A DNA stretch of 33,624 bases from a virus (lineage: Duplodnaviria; Heunggongvirae; Uroviricota; Caudoviricetes), in the IMG/VR virus record IMGVR_UViG_2531839474_000013, positions 1 to 33,624 of that record. One strand, 5' to 3'. Of this stretch, positions 4,079 to 33,624 are shown piece after piece. The position numbers and the translations under genes are program-made. The notes beneath the pieces were generated by a model. That model saw nothing but the letters and a program-made list of their open reading frames with translations. It was not told the DNA's origin and ran no database searches. The first letter of the stretch is position 1, and the number at the start of each line of letters is the position of its first letter.

Positions 4079-4106
4079 TAAAAAAACCGCTTCTGCGGTT
4101 TTTTAA
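4079..4106. terminator. bidirectional intrinsic terminator-like hairpin between the moron and the tape measure gene
   Basis: AAAAAAACCGCTTCTGCGGTTTTTT: a 6-bp GC-containing stem flanked by an A-run and a T-run. Confidence 0.6.
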
Positions 4107-4826: not shown

Positions 4827-5203
4827 TTAACCTCGCCGGCATCACTGATCAGTTCCAGAGACTGCCGAAGAAGCCGCGCATGCACCGGGCCATACACGGC
4901 AATCACCTGTTCACGATCATCCTCTGAAAATACAGGTTGCAGTCCGGTATCACACAGAACATCAATGAACAGTTCAACATCTGCCTCCAGATTTCGGCGG
5001 GCGCGCTCCGCAACGGATAACGGTGTCTCATCATCTTTTGCTTTAACGATCTCCTGCCAGCGCAACCAGGCTTCTGCAGAAGGTTCCCGTAATACAACCG
5101 TTGCCCCTTCCCATTCAGGCACATCAACAGTTTTATGGCGAAACCCCGACATCGTTGCCAGTGCCAGATTACGGATATTTTTAGTCATCACATCTATCCT
5201 CAT
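4817..5203 (-). CDS. tail assembly chaperone (gpG-like)
   Basis: 128-aa acidic protein directly upstream of the tape measure region; ends ...EVKKK* on the slippery heptamer. Confidence 0.7.
   Translation of the reverse strand: MRIDVMTKNIRNLALATMSGFRHKTVDVPEWEGATVVLREPSAEAWLRWQEIVKAKDDETPLSVAERARRNLEADVELFIDVLCDTGLQPVFSEDDREQVIAVYGPVHARLLRQSLELISDAGEVKKK
4820..4826 (-). promoter_or_regulatory. programmed -1 ribosomal frameshift slippery heptamer (A AAA AAG)
   Basis: Minus-strand GTT AAA AAA AAG TAG at the end of the G-like ORF; the -1 frame continues into the T ORF without a stop. Confidence 0.6.
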
Positions 5204-8727: not shown

Positions 8728-9327
8728 TTATGCATTAAGAAGGGTCAAAAGACGCTCACGCGCCATTCGTTCGTTAACAGCTTTCTTCAGCGCACCACTC
8801 GCCCGCGCTTCCTGCCAGGCTTTCATTGAGCGGACACCAGAGTCTGCGTCCTGATAGGCCGGATATGTCACCGGGCTGACGTCATACAGACGAGAAATGC
8901 GCGTGATTTCCCGGATAACAATCCCCTCGTCGTCTTCATACCAGCTCTCTCCATCACGGGCGACGCGAAACGCGAACGAGGACTGATTAATGTCACCACG
9001 CAACATTGGTGACAGCACCAGGTCACAAATCGTCGGCGTATCCGGTGCAACAATGTCATAACGCAAACCACGTTCATCCACTGATAATGACAACGTGCCG
9101 GCAGAACTTCGTCCGAGAATGAAATTAGGATCATGATTAAACAAGCCACGTACATCATCATTCAGCACGTCGTCAAAAGCCCCCGGCTTGATGATTTCAC
9201 GAAATCCCCACAGAGGTTCTGAACGACTGTTAAATACCGAGCCATACCCCAAAATATGAGTCGGGGCATTATCATATTGTTCTGCCCGCACTTCCCCGCA
9301 GTAACAGCGCGTTTCACGGTCATTCAT
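8728..9327 (-). CDS. prohead protease, HK97 family
   Basis: Start placed at ATG 9327 (AGAGGAAAAG upstream) overlapping the portal stop; sits between portal and capsid. Confidence 0.8.
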   Translation of the reverse strand: MNDRETRCYCGEVRAEQYDNAPTHILGYGSVFNSRSEPLWGFREIIKPGAFDDVLNDDVRGLFNHDPNFILGRSSAGTLSLSVDERGLRYDIVAPDTPTICDLVLSPMLRGDINQSSFAFRVARDGESWYEDDEGIVIREITRISRLYDVSPVTYPAYQDADSGVRSMKAWQEARASGALKKAVNERMARERLLTLLNA

Positions 9328-19961: not shown

Positions 19962-19995
19962 AAAACCCCGGACCATCAATCCGGGGTTTTTGTTT
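19962..19995 (+). terminator. intrinsic terminator after the toxin-antitoxin operon
   Basis: CCCCGGACCATCAATCCGGGG followed by TTTTTGTTTG. Confidence 0.6.
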
Positions 19996-22246: not shown

Positions 22247-23134
22247 TCAGGCTGCCAGATCATCGTTTCTGATGGAAGCATAATAAGCTTTTTCTGCTTC
22301 TGCCGGAGGGATATGACCCAGCCTTCCCAGCAATCGTCGATTGTTATACCAGTCCACCCACGTGAGTGTGGCCAGTTCCACTTCTGCACGGTTTTTCCAG
22401 CTCTTACGGTGTATTACCTCCGCTTTGTAAAGACCATTGATGCTCTCCGCCATCGCGTTGTCATACGAGTCACCTGTACTCCCTGTTGATGCCAGCAGTT
22501 TTGCTTCTTTTAGTCGCTCCGTATAGGCCAGTGATACATACTGAGAACCTTTATCACTGTGATGGACTGTGCCGGACGGCCGACGGGCCCACAACGCCTG
22601 CTCCAGTGCATCCAGCACGAATGTCGTTTCCATAGACGATGAGACTCGCCACCCCACGATACATCCGGCAAACACATCAATGATGAACGCCACATAGACG
22701 AAGCCCTGCCATGTGCTGACGTAAGTAAAATCAGCCACCCACAGCTGGTCAGGACGTTCTGCCACGAACTGACGGTTTACGCGGTCGCCTGCGGAAACGG
22801 CTTTCCGGCTGACGGTAGTACGGACCTTTTTACCCCGGAGAACACCGGCAAGTCCCATAACCGCCATGAGGCGCGCCACTGTACATCTGGCCACCCTGAT
22901 ACCTTCGCGTAACAACTGGCGCCAGACTTTACGCACACCGTACACCTGATGATTTTCATCGTATACGCGCTGTATCTCTCTCTTCAGCCAGTCATCGCGC
23001 TGAGCACGGGCACTGCGTTTATCAGGATGATGTCGCTGTTGCTGACAGTGGTAATACGTTGACGGGGCAATATGCAGTTCACTGCATACCGGTCCGACCC
23101 CGTACTGCTCACGCAGCTTATCCAGCAGCGGCAT
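22247..23134 (-). CDS. IS3-family transposase OrfB (DDE catalytic domain)
   Basis: 295 aa with integrase-core-like motifs (ADFTYV, HSDKGSQY, DNAMAES); in the -1 frame relative to orfA. Confidence 0.9.
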   Translation of the reverse strand: MPLLDKLREQYGVGPVCSELHIAPSTYYHCQQQRHHPDKRSARAQRDDWLKREIQRVYDENHQVYGVRKVWRQLLREGIRVARCTVARLMAVMGLAGVLRGKKVRTTVSRKAVSAGDRVNRQFVAERPDQLWVADFTYVSTWQGFVYVAFIIDVFAGCIVGWRVSSSMETTFVLDALEQALWARRPSGTVHHSDKGSQYVSLAYTERLKEAKLLASTGSTGDSYDNAMAESINGLYKAEVIHRKSWKNRAEVELATLTWVDWYNNRRLLGRLGHIPPAEAEKAYYASIRNDDLAA

Positions 23135-23460
23135 TATTTTTTCCAGAGGCGGTCGAACTCCGCCTTCGCAAAATAAGCGGAAGCCTGGCGAAGGATATCG
23201 TTACTGCGGCGCAGTTCACGATTTTCACGTTCCAGCTCTTTCAGACGCTGACGTTCAGCGGTGGTGAGTCCACCATCACCACTCCCGGTATCCCGCTCAT
23301 GCTGACGAACCCACACACGCAGAGTCTCTGGTGTACAGCCAATCTTTGGGGCAATGGAACAAATTGCCGCCCATTGTGAGTCATATTCGCCCTGACTTTC
23401 CAGAACCATACGAACTGCCCGTTGACGGACCTCGGGGGAAAAACGTGTATTTTTAGTCAT
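23134..23460 (-). CDS. IS3-family transposase OrfA (HTH domain)
   Basis: 108 aa with HTH and leucine-zipper-like C-terminus; ends TGG AAA AAA TAA, where orfB continues in the -1 frame. Confidence 0.9.
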
Positions 23461-27286: not shown

Positions 27287-27316
27287 GAAAAAAGCGCCTC
27301 CCTGGCGCTTTTTTTA
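27287..27316. terminator. bidirectional intrinsic terminator after the repressor gene
   Basis: AAAAAAGCGCCTCCCTGGCGCTTTTTTT. Confidence 0.65.
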
Positions 27317-28704: not shown

Positions 28705-29265
28705 TTCATCCTCCTGAGGGTTAGTAATTAAGGAGTTCTCCACGGGTGAGGTGGAGTGCGTGCGCCGGACACGGGTGAGCATCCGGCACTGACAGTTTAC
28801 TGAAAGGATATCTCCCTGAAAAGTCAGGGCATAACGCGAAAGCGCACGGCGAAGTTGTTGGTTCATAGATAGCCTGTCGTTAAATTTTCGTCGACCGTGC
28901 GCTTCCGGTTGTGGCACTCCGCGAAATGGCGCGGCGGTAAGTATGGCGGGGTTATTCCTTCCCCGTTGAGGACACCGGGTTGTCAGGTTGACCATACGCT
29001 TAAGTGACAACCCCGCTGCAACGCCCTCTGTTATCAATTTTCTGGTGACGTTTGGCGGTATCAGTTTTACTCCGTGACTGCTCTGCCGCCCTTTTTAAAG
29101 TGAATTTTGTGATGCGGTGAATGCGGCTAAGCGCACGAGGAACAGTTAAAACCAAAAACAGTGTTATGGGTGGATTCTCTGTATCCGGCGTTAATTGTTA
29201 ACTGGTTAACGTCACCTGGAGGCACCAGGCACTGCATCACAAAATTCATTGTTGAGGACGCGATA

Positions 29266-29734: not shown

Positions 29735-32206
29735 ATGAGTAAAGTCTTTATTTGCGCCGCCATTCCGGACGAACAGGCAATAAAGGAAGAAGGTGCAGTC
29801 GCTGTAGCCACTGCCATTGAAGCCGGTGATGAACGTCGCGCCCGCGCAAAATTTCACTGGCAATTCCTGGAACATTATCCGGCTGCTCAGGACTGCGCTT
29901 ATAAATTTATTATCTGCGAGGATAAACCTGGCATACCCCGCCCTGCCCTCGATTCATGGGATGCTGAATATATGCAGGAAAACCGCTGGGATGAGGATTC
30001 TGCTTCTTTTGTCCCGGTTGAGACTGAATCCGATCTGATGAACGTCACTTTTGACAAGCTGGCCCCTGAAGTACAGAACGCTGTCATGGTTAAGTTCGAC
30101 ACATGTGAAAACATCACCGTTGATATGGTGATTAGCGCGCAGGAATTGTTGCAGGAAGACATGGCAACATTCGACGGACATATCGTTGAAGCGTTGATGA
30201 AAATGCCAGAAGTTAACGCCATGTATCCGGAGCTTAAGCTGCATGCCATCGGGTGGGTTAAGCATAAATGTAAGCCTGGTGCCAAATGGCCCGAAATTCA
30301 GGCAGAGATGCGCATCTGGAAAAAACGTCGCGAAGGTGAACGCAAGGAAACCGGAAAATACACGTCTGTTGTTGATCTCGCCCGCGCCAGAGCCAATCAA
30401 CAGAACACTGAAAATTCAACAGGAAAAATCAGCCCGGTCATTGCTGCCACTCATCGCGAATACAAGCAGACATGGAAAACACTGGATGACGAACTGGCCT
30501 ACGCTCTCTGGCCTGGTGATGTGGATGCCGGAAACATTGACGGCAGCATCCATCGCTGGGCAAAAAATGAAGTTATCGACAACGACCGCGAAGACTGGAA
30601 GCGTATCTCGGCATCAATGCGCAAACAGCCTGATGCCCTTCGCTACGACCGCCAGACTATTTTTGGCCTTGTCCGTGAACGTCCGATCGACATTCACAAA
30701 GACCCCATAGCACTGAACAAATACATCACCGAATACCTGACGACAAAGGGCGTGTTTGAAAATGAAGAAACAAACCAGAGCACAACTGATACTCTCCAGT
30801 CACCAGAAACACAAACTGATGCAGTGGAAACGGAAATACCGGACAACCAAAAAAACGAAACCAAACCGGAAGCCGAACCATCTGTAGAGCGTGAAGGGCC
30901 GTTCTACTTCCTCTCCACAGACAAGGACAGAGAAAAATACGGTCGCGCAAACAAACTTTCTGGTCTGGATAAGGCACTGGCTGCAGGCGCCACTGAAATC
31001 ACAAAAGAAGAATATTTCGCCCGAAAAAACGGCACATACACAGGCTCACAACAAAATACAGATACAGCTGAAAAGACAGAACAACCAGAGCCGATAAAAG
31101 TTACCGCTGACGAAGTAAACAAAATTATGCAGGCAGCCAATATCAGCCAGCCTGACGCCGATAAGTTGCTTGCTGCATCACGTGGTGAATTTATTGAAGG
31201 GATTAGCGACCCGAATGATCCGAAATGGATTAAGGGGATCCAGACCCGCGATACTGTGAACCAGAACCAGCAAGAAACGGAACAGAACGACCAAAAAGCG
31301 GAACAAAACAGCCCAAATACGCAACAAAACGAGCCAGAAACGAAACAACCTGAACCAGTAGTGCAACAGGAACCGGAAAAAATCTGCACCGCCTGCGGTC
31401 AGACCGGCGGCGGCAACTGCCCTGATTGTGGCGCGGTGATGGGCGACGCAACATACCAGGAAACATTCGATGAAGAGAATCAGCCTGAAGTTCAGGAAAA
31501 TGATCCGGAGGAAATGGAAGGCACTGAACATCAACACAAGGAGAACACTGGCGGCAATCAGCATCACAATAGCGATAATGAAACTGGCGAGACGGCAGAT
31601 CACTCAATTAAGGCGAACGGTCATCAAAAAATCACATCCACCAGCAGAACGGGGAACCATCTAATGATCGACCTTGAAACCATGGGAAAAAATCCCGATG
31701 CCCCGATCATCTCAATAGGTGCAATATTTTTCGATCCGCAAACCGGAGATATGGGACCGGAATTTAGTAAGACTATCGATCTGGAAACTGCTGGCGGAGT
31801 CATTGATCGGGACACCATTAAATGGTGGCTTAAGCAATCACGCGAAGCGCAATCTGCCATTATGACCGATGAAATCCCGTTAGATGATGCACTGTTACAA
31901 TTGCGGGAATTTATCGACGAAAACTCCGGTGAATTTTTTGTTCAGGTCTGGGGAAATGGAGCCAACTTCGACAACACGATTTTGCGCCGTTCATACGAAC
32001 GGCAGGGGATCCCCTGCCCGTGGCGTTACTACAACGATCGCGATGTACGCACAATCGTTGAGCTGGGGAAAGCCATAGACTTCGATGCCAGAACGGCTAT
32101 TCCATTCGAAGGTGAGCGCCATAATGCACTTGATGACGCCCGTTACCAGGCAAAATACGTTTCAGTTATCTGGCAAAAACTGATCCCGAGTCAGGCTGAT
32201 TTTTAA
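29735..32206 (+). CDS. large phage exonuclease: N-terminal region of unknown function, low-complexity linker with C4 zinc ribbon, C-terminal DEDDh 3'-5' exonuclease domain
   Basis: 823 aa. C-terminal motifs IDLETMG (Exo I), [12 protein letters not shown] (Exo II), HNALDDARY (Exo III). Linker is Q/E/N/T-rich with [16 protein letters not shown]. Lies in the exo position upstream of xis and int. Confidence 0.8.
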
Positions 32207-32267
32207 TGTTCAACCGTCGCCAGTTGTCGTTGATATTCTGCAACTGGCGCGTTCCGGAGTGATAGCC

Positions 32268-32537
32268 ATGAGCGAACAGTACCTGATAACGCTCGACGAG
32301 TGGAAACCAAAACGGTTCAGTCTCCCAATAACAAACACTACCCTGGTGAAATACGGAAAACTAGGATACATCGTTCCAAGGCCACAAAAAATTCGTGGGC
32401 GTTGGCTGATAGATCGCCGAGCAGTATTTGTTGGGCCTGGTGAAACGGGAATTGCGCCGGAAATTCATACTGGCGATGATGATGCACTGAAGGAGATTTT
32501 AACTCATGTCACCGAGGCCACGAAAAAACAGCACTGA
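32268..32537 (+). CDS. xis: excisionase-like protein
   Basis: Begins MSEQYLITLDEW, similar to lambda Xis MYLTLQEW; immediately upstream of and overlapping int; GGAGTGA ribosome-binding site. Confidence 0.65.
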   Translation: MSEQYLITLDEWKPKRFSLPITNTTLVKYGKLGYIVPRPQKIRGRWLIDRRAVFVGPGETGIAPEIHTGDDDALKEILTHVTEATKKQH

Positions 32538-33624
32538 CGTAGCCGGTCTTTACGAAAAGTTTGATCGCAGAACTGGCAGAGTTTACTACCAGTATAAAAA
32601 TCCTGTGACTGGAAAATTTCACGGACTCGGAACAGACAAAGGTAAGGCAGAAAAAATCGCTTCCACAGCCAATCAGCGAATAGCTGCAGCAGAAGCTGAA
32701 TATTTCATGCGCAAAATTGATGAAAGTCCGTCAGCAACAAAACGTCGGGGTATCAGATTAAAGGCATGGGTTGATCGATATCTGAAAATACAGGACACAC
32801 GACTGAAAAATGGAGATATTGCAGCTACAACTCACAAAGAAAAAACTCGAATGGCTGCATACCTGGTTTCCCGTCTGGGAAACCACCCATTGAAAGAACT
32901 GGAAGTAAGAGACTTTGCATTAATACTGGATGAGTGGCTGGATAAAGACATGGTCAGCACAGCGAGAGTAAATCGTGGATTATGGGTTGATATTTATAAA
33001 GAAGCACAGCATGCAGGGGAAGTTCCTCCTGGATGGAATCCTCCGGAGGCTACCCGTAAACCGATCCCTAAAGTAACCAGAGCCAGGCTCACCATGGAAG
33101 ACTGGCAAAAAATTTACAATGCAACGCCTGAAAAACACTTTATCCGTAACGCAATGCTTCTTGCGATTGTTACTGGTCAGCGCCGTGATGACATTTGCCA
33201 CATGCGTTTTTCAGATGTGTGGAACGAACACTTGCATATCACCCAGGGAAAAACCGGAATGCGTCTGGCGTTACCGCTTACACTACGCTGTGATGCCATT
33301 GGGATAACGTTAAAAGAAGTTATTGATGGGTGCCGAGACAGAATATTAAGTCCATATCTAATCCATAGTCGGCACCAGAAACAACCGAAGCCGATGAGTA
33401 AAGACAACCTGAGCGACTACTTTGCCAAAGCACGGGATCTGGCTGGGATAATTCCACCAGCAGGAAAAACTCCGCCAACATTTCATGAACAACGCTCTCT
33501 ATCAGAACGGCTGTACCGTGCACAGGGTATCGATACAAAAACATTACTAGGACATAAAGTCCAGGCAACCACCGATCGCTATAACGATACTCGAGGTCAG
33601 GAATGGGTTAAGTTGGTTATTTGA
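32506..33624 (+). CDS. int: tyrosine integrase, lambda Int family
   Basis: 372 aa; C-terminal HEQRSLSERLY...LLGHK...DRYNDTRGQEW matches the lambda Int catalytic region; AAGGAGA upstream; stop at 33622..33624, so the attachment site should lie just beyond the window. Confidence 0.9.
   Translation: MSPRPRKNSTDVAGLYEKFDRRTGRVYYQYKNPVTGKFHGLGTDKGKAEKIASTANQRIAAAEAEYFMRKIDESPSATKRRGIRLKAWVDRYLKIQDTRLKNGDIAATTHKEKTRMAAYLVSRLGNHPLKELEVRDFALILDEWLDKDMVSTARVNRGLWVDIYKEAQHAGEVPPGWNPPEATRKPIPKVTRARLTMEDWQKIYNATPEKHFIRNAMLLAIVTGQRRDDICHMRFSDVWNEHLHITQGKTGMRLALPLTLRCDAIGITLKEVIDGCRDRILSPYLIHSRHQKQPKPMSKDNLSDYFAKARDLAGIIPPAGKTPPTFHEQRSLSERLYRAQGIDTKTLLGHKVQATTDRYNDTRGQEWVKLVI

Follow-up and report, generated by a model that had tools for sequence, protein, structure and literature searches.

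The short inverted repeat that precedes the excisionase gene (xis) in the prophage analyzed here is a real and conserved hairpin of a familiar kind that has apparently gone undescribed. The DNA is a 33,624-nucleotide stretch, positions 1 to 33,624 of IMG/VR record IMGVR_UViG_2531839474_000013, and is referred to as the window. Comparison of related loci supports the identification of the repeat as a sense-strand RNA stem-loop maintained by selection, and RNA on the exonuclease-xis-integrase transcript is the simplest reading. A search of the literature on stem-loops upstream of xis, tL terminators, EHEC prophage sRNAs, and the exo-xis region found no description of the element.

The repeat occurs once in the window, in the 61 nt that separate the exonuclease gene from xis. 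Its arms, CGCCAGTTG (positions 32218 to 32226, plus strand) and CAACTGGCG (32241 to 32249, plus strand), were reported by a repeat finder as 9 nt long and 100% complementary with a 14-nt spacer, in agreement with the preliminary description of this DNA; the absence of a following T run, also noted there, was borne out by the next bases, CGCGTTCCGG, and by a terminator scan that was empty at this site. From the stop codon of the exonuclease gene onward, the order is TAA (32204 to 32206), TGTTCAACCGT, the 5′ arm CGCCAGTTG, the 14-nt loop TCGTTGATATTCTG (32227 to 32240, plus strand), the 3′ arm CAACTGGCG, CGTTCCGGAGTGATAGCC, and the ATG of xis (32268). U32227 and G32240 could form a tenth pair. 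The extended Shine-Dalgarno sequence of xis, GGAGTGAT (32256 to 32263, plus strand; core GGAG at 32256 to 32259), begins 6 nt past the hairpin, and RGTGATRG at this position is common to all of the type-1 leaders (those of Xis type 1) that were compared.

The last gene before xis (29735 to 32206, plus strand, taken from the ORF list) encodes an 823-residue exonuclease with a Pfam Rv2179c-like 3′-5′ exoribonuclease domain at residues 641 to 813 (E = 9e-68). An 18-bp perfect palindrome, GGCAGGGGA followed without a spacer by TCCCCTGCC, lies within the coding region of this domain at 32001 to 32018. The xis gene (32268 to 32537, plus strand) encodes an 89-residue protein resembling lambda Exc (Pfam PF07825, E = 7e-5); its start was taken as the ATG at 32268, and the ORF lister starts the frame at a GTG at 32259. 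In the identical phage record vB_EcoS-640R1 its counterpart is annotated as an excisionase, and potC follows int there. The int gene (32506 to 33624, plus strand) encodes a lambda-type tyrosine integrase of 372 residues with Pfam Arm-DNA-bind_1 and Phage_integrase domains. Since the gene for the small RNA DicF (29040 to 29091, plus strand; Rfam RF00039, 76.7 bits) lies upstream on the same strand, the three genes just described are the tail of an early-left operon of the DicF/dicB type.

As judged from sequence, the repeat is not a product of chance, and the strong evidence for this is comparative and not thermodynamic. By chance, about 0.004 perfect inverted repeats with arms of 9 bp or more and loops of 3 to 20 nt would be expected in 60 nt; over the whole window, 15 k-mer positions of such repeats were observed, compared to 2.5 ± 2.0 in first-order Markov simulations. 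The 61-nt sense RNA folded at −19 kcal/mol with a z score of −1.9, which is only mildly unusual. The nine stem pairs, six of which are G-C, had pairing probabilities of 0.93 to 1.0 when folded in 280 nt of context, and the G+C-rich stem was assigned −17 to −19 kcal/mol.

To compare this site among related phages, about 400 IMG/VR loci were examined for the exonuclease-xis junction. Among the E. coli prophages that carry the hairpin of the window (family A), arm position 5 covaries with position 32245: the distinct variants comprise five A-U, four G-C, one G.U, and one A.C, while the other eight pairs are invariant. The single A.C variant is a recombinant with a crossover inside the loop, in which an A-type left arm is joined to a right arm of the type found in Tritos phages. 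The Tritos repeat itself, CGCCGGTTG-14 nt-CAACCGGCG, represents a two-sided change from A-T to G-C. Loops differ even among close relatives (GATATT, GGTATT, or GCTATT; TCG, TAG, TGG, or TGA), and stem columns show less variation than loop or flank columns.

A second hairpin family, designated B-F, occupies the same position in other prophages and was represented by 22 distinct variants. Of the stem cells in this family, 96.3% were paired, and four pairs had both sides changed. The covariation score was reached by 0 of 500 shuffles, and slid registers reduced pairing to 20 to 80%. In both families the pairing survives compensatory and wobble changes; selection acts on the pairing and not on the sequence. 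Of the stem cells, 37 of 242 (family B-F) and 34 of 308 (family A) are G.U combinations, each of which would become an A.C mismatch if read from the opposite strand. Folding averaged −17.4 kcal/mol for the sense strand versus −15.4 kcal/mol for the antisense strand; 22 of the 34 variants were more stable as sense and 12 as antisense. The G.U wobbles thus make the sense-strand fold more stable on average, as would fit RNA on the exo-xis-int transcript, with the caveat that G.T wobbles are partly tolerated in a single-stranded DNA hairpin as well.

More distant relatives of Xis were collected by protein searches with contig look-ups and by a pattern scan of metagenomes in which the hairpin region was left unspecified; a scan of genome contigs with Xis gave three loci only. 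A Salmonella relative (Xis 87% identical) has the same hairpin, and an Enterobacter relative (69%) has GCCAGCUGC-13 nt-GCAGCUGGC. In Citrobacter and one metagenome lineage (73%) a 13-bp stem that includes three or four G.U pairs closes a 5-nt loop; in Citrobacter, four to five additional pairs are made from loop bases. In one further lineage (72%), this place is taken by another stem, GCCUGCCCA/UGGGCAGGC. Across genera (Xis 87 to 69% identical) the outer pairs, GCCAG/CUGGC, are retained, and pairs 6 to 9 show compensated changes in Citrobacter and Enterobacter (69 to 73%). A more remote locus (L423, Xis 62% identical) lies in a P2/Mu-like neighborhood with no long operon ahead of xis-int and contains only a remnant, GCCGGTTGCAGCCGGT, at about 1455 to 1475; by its sequence, this remnant looks like both arms of a Tritos-type hairpin with the loop deleted.

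Pairs were counted across genera with a script that used a register hand-set from the base of the stem, and not an unbiased alignment, because MAFFT placed the cross-genus 3′ arms in inconsistent columns. In this register the distinct variants comprised 24 A-U, 5 G-C, and 2 G.U at pair 4; 17 U-A, 13 C-G, and 1 U.G at pair 6; 29 U-A, 1 C-G, and 1 U.G at pair 7; and 16 U.G, 11 C-G, and 3 U-A at pair 9, counts that overstate the number of independent events because most of the sequences come from closely related E. coli prophages. Compensatory and wobble changes, occurrence in independent lineages, and strand asymmetry, the features by which a conserved cis-acting RNA stem-loop is recognized, were all found here, in a set that includes many close relatives and relies on the hand-set register across genera. 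Conservation among homologous prophages had been proposed as a check on the repeat, and pairing proved to be kept from E. coli to other genera. Of the two interpretations offered at the outset, an RNA structure gained support from the compensatory and wobble changes and the greater stability of the sense fold, whereas a protein-binding site did not, given the variable spacing and the unrelated Xis and Int proteins encoded downstream.

The latter interpretation would make the repeat a DNA operator at which a dimeric regulator (Xis, Int, a repressor, or a host factor) controls xis/int transcription. The perfect 9-bp dyad is intergenic and upstream of xis, as an operator might be, and the paired changes at arm position 5 preserve dyad symmetry as well as RNA pairing. 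The geometry of the element is not that of an operator, however: the center-to-center spacing of the arms is 23, 22, 18, or 16 to 17 bp, arms or stems measure 9 to 13 bp, loop length varies between 5 and 14 nt, and the arm sequences differ by lineage. Wobble positions, with T opposite G, break the symmetry of the DNA. Identical hairpins precede unrelated Xis and Int proteins (types 1 and 2), while pairs of Xis proteins that are 46 to 47% identical (types 1 and 3, types 2 and 6) are preceded by different hairpin families, and neither a promoter-like site nor CII sites are found nearby. Variable arm length and spacing, together with unrelated Xis/Int partners, make an operator very improbable.

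The hairpin is one part of a leader of about 75 nt with a constant order: CUGAUU-N7-UUCAA, 3 to 9 nt, a G+C-rich hairpin of 31 to 32 nt (9 to 13 bp), 4 to 6 nt, the Shine-Dalgarno sequence, and the xis AUG. In the window, the first of these components, the single-stranded motif CTGATT-N7-TTCAA (32196 to 32213, plus strand), overlaps the stop codon of the exonuclease gene and is unique, with 0.09 matches expected. Relatives from E. coli, Salmonella, Citrobacter, Enterobacter, and metagenomes all have the motif with unchanged spacing, wherever and in whichever frame the upstream stop codon falls; in Enterobacter the motif lies downstream of the called upstream gene. Its form across lineages is CTGATT-N7-WTCAA, placed 3 to 9 nt ahead of the hairpin, and its distance to the xis ATG is constant at 75 to 76 nt. 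No conserved leader peptide or pseudoknot common to the lineages was found on inspection by eye.

The genes upstream of this leader are not constant. In Enterobacter and Citrobacter they encode DUF4060, DUF7740, or a 75-residue ORF, with no exonuclease domain, and the hairpin still stands before xis. In phage mEpX2, which has a homologous exonuclease gene followed by a gene other than xis, no hairpin follows the exonuclease gene. In these arrangements the hairpin goes with the 5′ side of xis and not with the exonuclease gene. The junctions of E. coli K-12 prophages e14 (at xisE) and DLP12 (exoD-xisD) contain no such hairpin.

Placement so close to the start of xis raises the possibility of translational modulation, in which a rigid hairpin would limit or standardize 30S standby binding and thereby set a low, context-independent rate of Xis synthesis. 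Several features are consistent with this idea. All type-1 leaders place the Shine-Dalgarno sequence 4 to 6 nt past the hairpin and have the same overall length, and the element accompanies xis when the upstream genes differ. Moreover, in Enterobacter, Citrobacter, and the metagenome L415 lineage (L417 to L422, L209, L210, and L415), a second small hairpin abuts the first and holds the Shine-Dalgarno sequence in its loop; its compensatory changes are CUAUC/GAUAG, CCAUC/GAUGG, and CUAUC/GAUGG. The E. coli leader, however, does not contain this second hairpin, and the distance from hairpin to ATG varies from 13 to 29 nt in the other five xis-int cassettes. Deletion or disruption of the hairpin in silico also altered the accessibility of the Shine-Dalgarno sequence and AUG little: the computed accessibility of the ribosome-binding site was 0.41 for the wild type versus 0.27 to 0.45 for mutants and is hardly hairpin dependent. 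A role of the hairpin in insulating the ribosome-binding site was rejected on the same grounds, accessibility being nearly the same without it. We consider translational modulation as the main role of the hairpin quite unlikely.

Hairpins ahead of xis are not restricted to the phages described above. In lambda, AAGCCGCC-TGAT-GGCGGTTTTTTT (29109 to 29128; 1410 to 1429 of locus L412) lies about 30 nt before the xis ATG and just upstream of the CII sites of pI, and pre-xis hairpins of differing sequence, with compensatory changes and a T run, were found in HK022, HK97, an Stx1a phage, Salmonella SI8, and Tbat2_3 (compared with lambda as the set L493 to L497). A pre-xis hairpin is therefore general in lambdoid phages, and the one studied here is a longer variant that has no T run and abuts the ribosome-binding site. 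Both kinds are located where the early-left operon ends, immediately ahead of xis, and both have G+C-rich stems with compensated changes. The lambda-type hairpins differ in having a 5- to 7-bp stem, a 4- to 5-nt loop, always a run of 4 to 7 T residues, and then TTGC-N6-TTGC CII sites, whereas the hairpin studied here has 9 to 13 bp, a 5- to 14-nt loop, and neither T run nor CII site.

This resemblance suggests by analogy that the hairpin might act as a weak, antitermination-sensitive terminator or pause site, a counterpart of the lambda-type hairpin and T run that would keep unmodified RNA polymerase out of xis-int. Terminator-like hairpins stand 25 to 40 nt before the xis ATG in lambda, HK022, HK97, Stx1a_1602, SI8, and Tbat2_3, and the HK97 record labels its own, at 22612 to 22631, a putative terminator. 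A terminator-like hairpin lies about 90 nt upstream of xis in mEpX2, mEp460 has a short hairpin followed by TTTT, and the G+C-rich stem and the position of the hairpin in the window match those of the lambda type. No variant of either family has a T run, however (tails CGCGTTCC, ATGATTAG, ATGAGATA, and ATGCTGTA), the terminator scan was negative, and the loops, at 8 to 14 nt, are longer than is typical of terminators. Neither the conserved motif upstream nor the invariant spacing to the ribosome-binding site is characteristic of terminators. Overall, we regard a terminator or pause function as unlikely, although it carries more weight than the other alternatives to the favored role set out below. 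A conventional intrinsic terminator was rejected outright: the G+C-rich hairpin is present and the U run is absent. Elsewhere in the window, three perfect inverted repeats that open with an A run (4081 to 4104, 19962 to 19990, and 27288 to 27314; examples, AAAAAACCGC, AAAACCCCGGA, and AAAAAAGCGCC) look like intrinsic terminators of minus-strand genes.

Other classes of element were examined in turn. RNase III usually needs about 20 bp, or about two helical turns, of mostly double-stranded RNA, and a stem of 9 to 10 bp (at most 13 bp in relatives) falls well short of that length; RNase III sensitivity, which had been suggested as a check on the repeat, is therefore unlikely, and a sib-like or T7 R-site-like cleavage site was rejected. 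A scan of 31500 to 33624 found no sigma-70-like promoter. A −10-like TATNNT does occur in every loop, 17 to 20 nt past TTCAAY. A promoter in the loop was nevertheless rejected, since the spacing varies, GGTATT and GCTATT are common, the scan was negative, and a transcript started there would omit the covarying 5′ arm. The CII/pI pattern TTGC-N6-TTGC occurs nowhere in the window. N-utilization sites have a boxB with a 5-bp stem and a 5-nt loop, preceded by a boxA (CGCTCTTA-like); the stem of 9 to 13 bp and the loop of 5 to 14 nt differ from this consensus, and no boxA-like sequence is conserved across the aligned leaders. An Rfam search of 31800 to 32700 at an E value of up to 10 returned only chance eukaryotic matches. 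At the Rfam gathering score, the whole window contained only DicF and the ALIL frameshift pseudoknot, both away from the hairpin. The ALIL element (RF01497; 23063 to 23179, minus strand; 120.9 bits) falls between the overlapping minus-strand ORFs 23134 to 23460 and 22247 to 23134, an arrangement that suggests an IS3-family insertion sequence within the prophage. Pairing of DicF with 32176 to 32184 was dismissed as being at chance level, the 9-mer being one of several such matches in the window.

BLAST comparison with phage genomes placed the hairpin on a mosaic joint. Similarity to PPompW-type phages ends at 32215 to 32216 (query position 316 of 31900 to 32600 and 116 of 32100 to 32400), three bases ahead of the repeat, and similarity to Tritos-type phages ends at 32250 to 32251 (query positions 351 and 151 of the same two intervals), one base past it. 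The Tritos-type phages have the hairpin of the window followed by an unrelated xis-int, and the PPompW phages have a different, imperfect hairpin at the same place. The general arrangement is a shared exonuclease end, then a hairpin of family A or family B-F, and then one of six xis-int cassettes. Xis of types 1 and 2 is preceded by family A, and the remaining types, 3 to 6, are preceded by family B-F; the Xis types are related pairwise (types 1 and 3, 46% identity; types 2 and 6, 47%; types 4 and 5, 28%), and the hairpin families cut across these pairs. The exonuclease 3′ end was found in 4,191 of 5,426 complete E. coli genomes, and the hairpin with the xis of the window was found in 1,627 of those, including O157:H7 and other Shiga-toxin strains.

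These joints could mean that the hairpin is mainly a recombination linker, a palindrome with no role in expression that persists because phages that exchange cassettes through the patch are the ones that survive. The breaks at 32215 and 32250, the two families ahead of six cassettes, the lack of correspondence between hairpin family and Xis family, and the chimeric hairpins (those joining A and Tritos arms and type E of family B-F, which consists of a D base and a B top) all agree with such a history. A neutral patch would not, however, be expected to retain pairing through compensatory and wobble changes or to show strand-asymmetric G.U pairs, nor to keep its hairpin across genera despite diverged flanks. 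Exchange at this site more probably follows from the presence of a functional element that is conserved, and a purely passive linker is accordingly an improbable account, slightly more so than the translational one. As a by-product, the conserved patch would supply short homology for recombining xis-int modules onto the same phage backbone. The hairpin marks to the nucleotide where six integration cassettes met one backbone and offers a concrete case in which to study how short conserved noncoding patches guide mosaic exchange among lambdoid phages.

The likeliest role, which we favor tentatively and at somewhat less than even probability, is that of a cis-acting boundary element on the mRNA ahead of xis-int, acting as a processing or stability determinant. 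The inverted repeat would then be the DNA image of a stem-loop in the sense RNA of the early-left operon, in the exonuclease-xis leader. Such a stem-loop could block 3′-to-5′ exonucleolytic decay that began in xis-int from reaching the upstream genes, or it could cap the xis-int segment after an endonucleolytic cut in the conserved A/U-rich stretch upstream. Because it lies 6 nt ahead of the ribosome-binding site, the hairpin may in addition set the level of Xis translation from read-through transcripts. A simple decay barrier leaves unexplained the conserved upstream motif and the constant 75 to 76 nt to the AUG.

Intercistronic mRNA stabilizers are known from the REP elements of malE-malF and the hairpins of the puf operon. 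Like these, the hairpin studied here is a stable G+C-rich sense-strand stem-loop without a U tract, set between cistrons of a polycistronic mRNA. It differs from them in being a single copy and not a dispersed repeat, in having a conserved single-stranded motif upstream, and in keeping a set distance from the ribosome-binding site that follows. In lambda, the retroregulator sib/tI lies downstream of int, across attP, and forms a long duplex that is cut by RNase III. Both sib and, in its putative role, the hairpin would be cis-acting RNA elements for posttranscriptional control of integration genes in a lambdoid phage, whereas the hairpin is upstream of xis and too short for RNase III. No convincing sib-like long hairpin was found beyond the attachment core in strain M217, which leaves a link to retroregulation without support. 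A further parallel is offered by the promoter/stem-loop (PeSL) cassettes of T4-type phages, which are reported (PMC2839356) to be likewise short conserved stem-loop motifs at the borders of exchanged modules; they belong to another phage group and are reported to include an early promoter, whereas no promoter was detectable at the hairpin.

A broader proposal, which we offer as speculation of low probability, is that the leader of about 75 nt as a whole may be an undescribed cis-regulatory RNA that binds a factor of host or phage origin (an RNase, a chaperone, or the 30S subunit) and gates Xis synthesis and excision. The same leader might also serve as a standard docking joint for swaps of integration cassettes by which enterobacterial lambdoid prophages of the DicF/dicB type change insertion sites. 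Should the hairpin tune Xis and Int production, it would affect how readily these prophages excise and spread and would provide a simple, mutable handle on the control of excision; if it is only a passive stabilizer, it would represent ordinary operon punctuation.

Just beyond int and outside the window, a 14-bp core, TGAATAAGAAGGTG (4870 to 4883 in locus L003 and 9226 to 9239 in locus L492), marks the insertion of the prophage at the 3′ end of potB. The potC and potD genes are codirectional with xis-int, and the entire prophage lies between them and the potA promoter. Insertion in potB raises the question of how potCD is expressed in lysogens.
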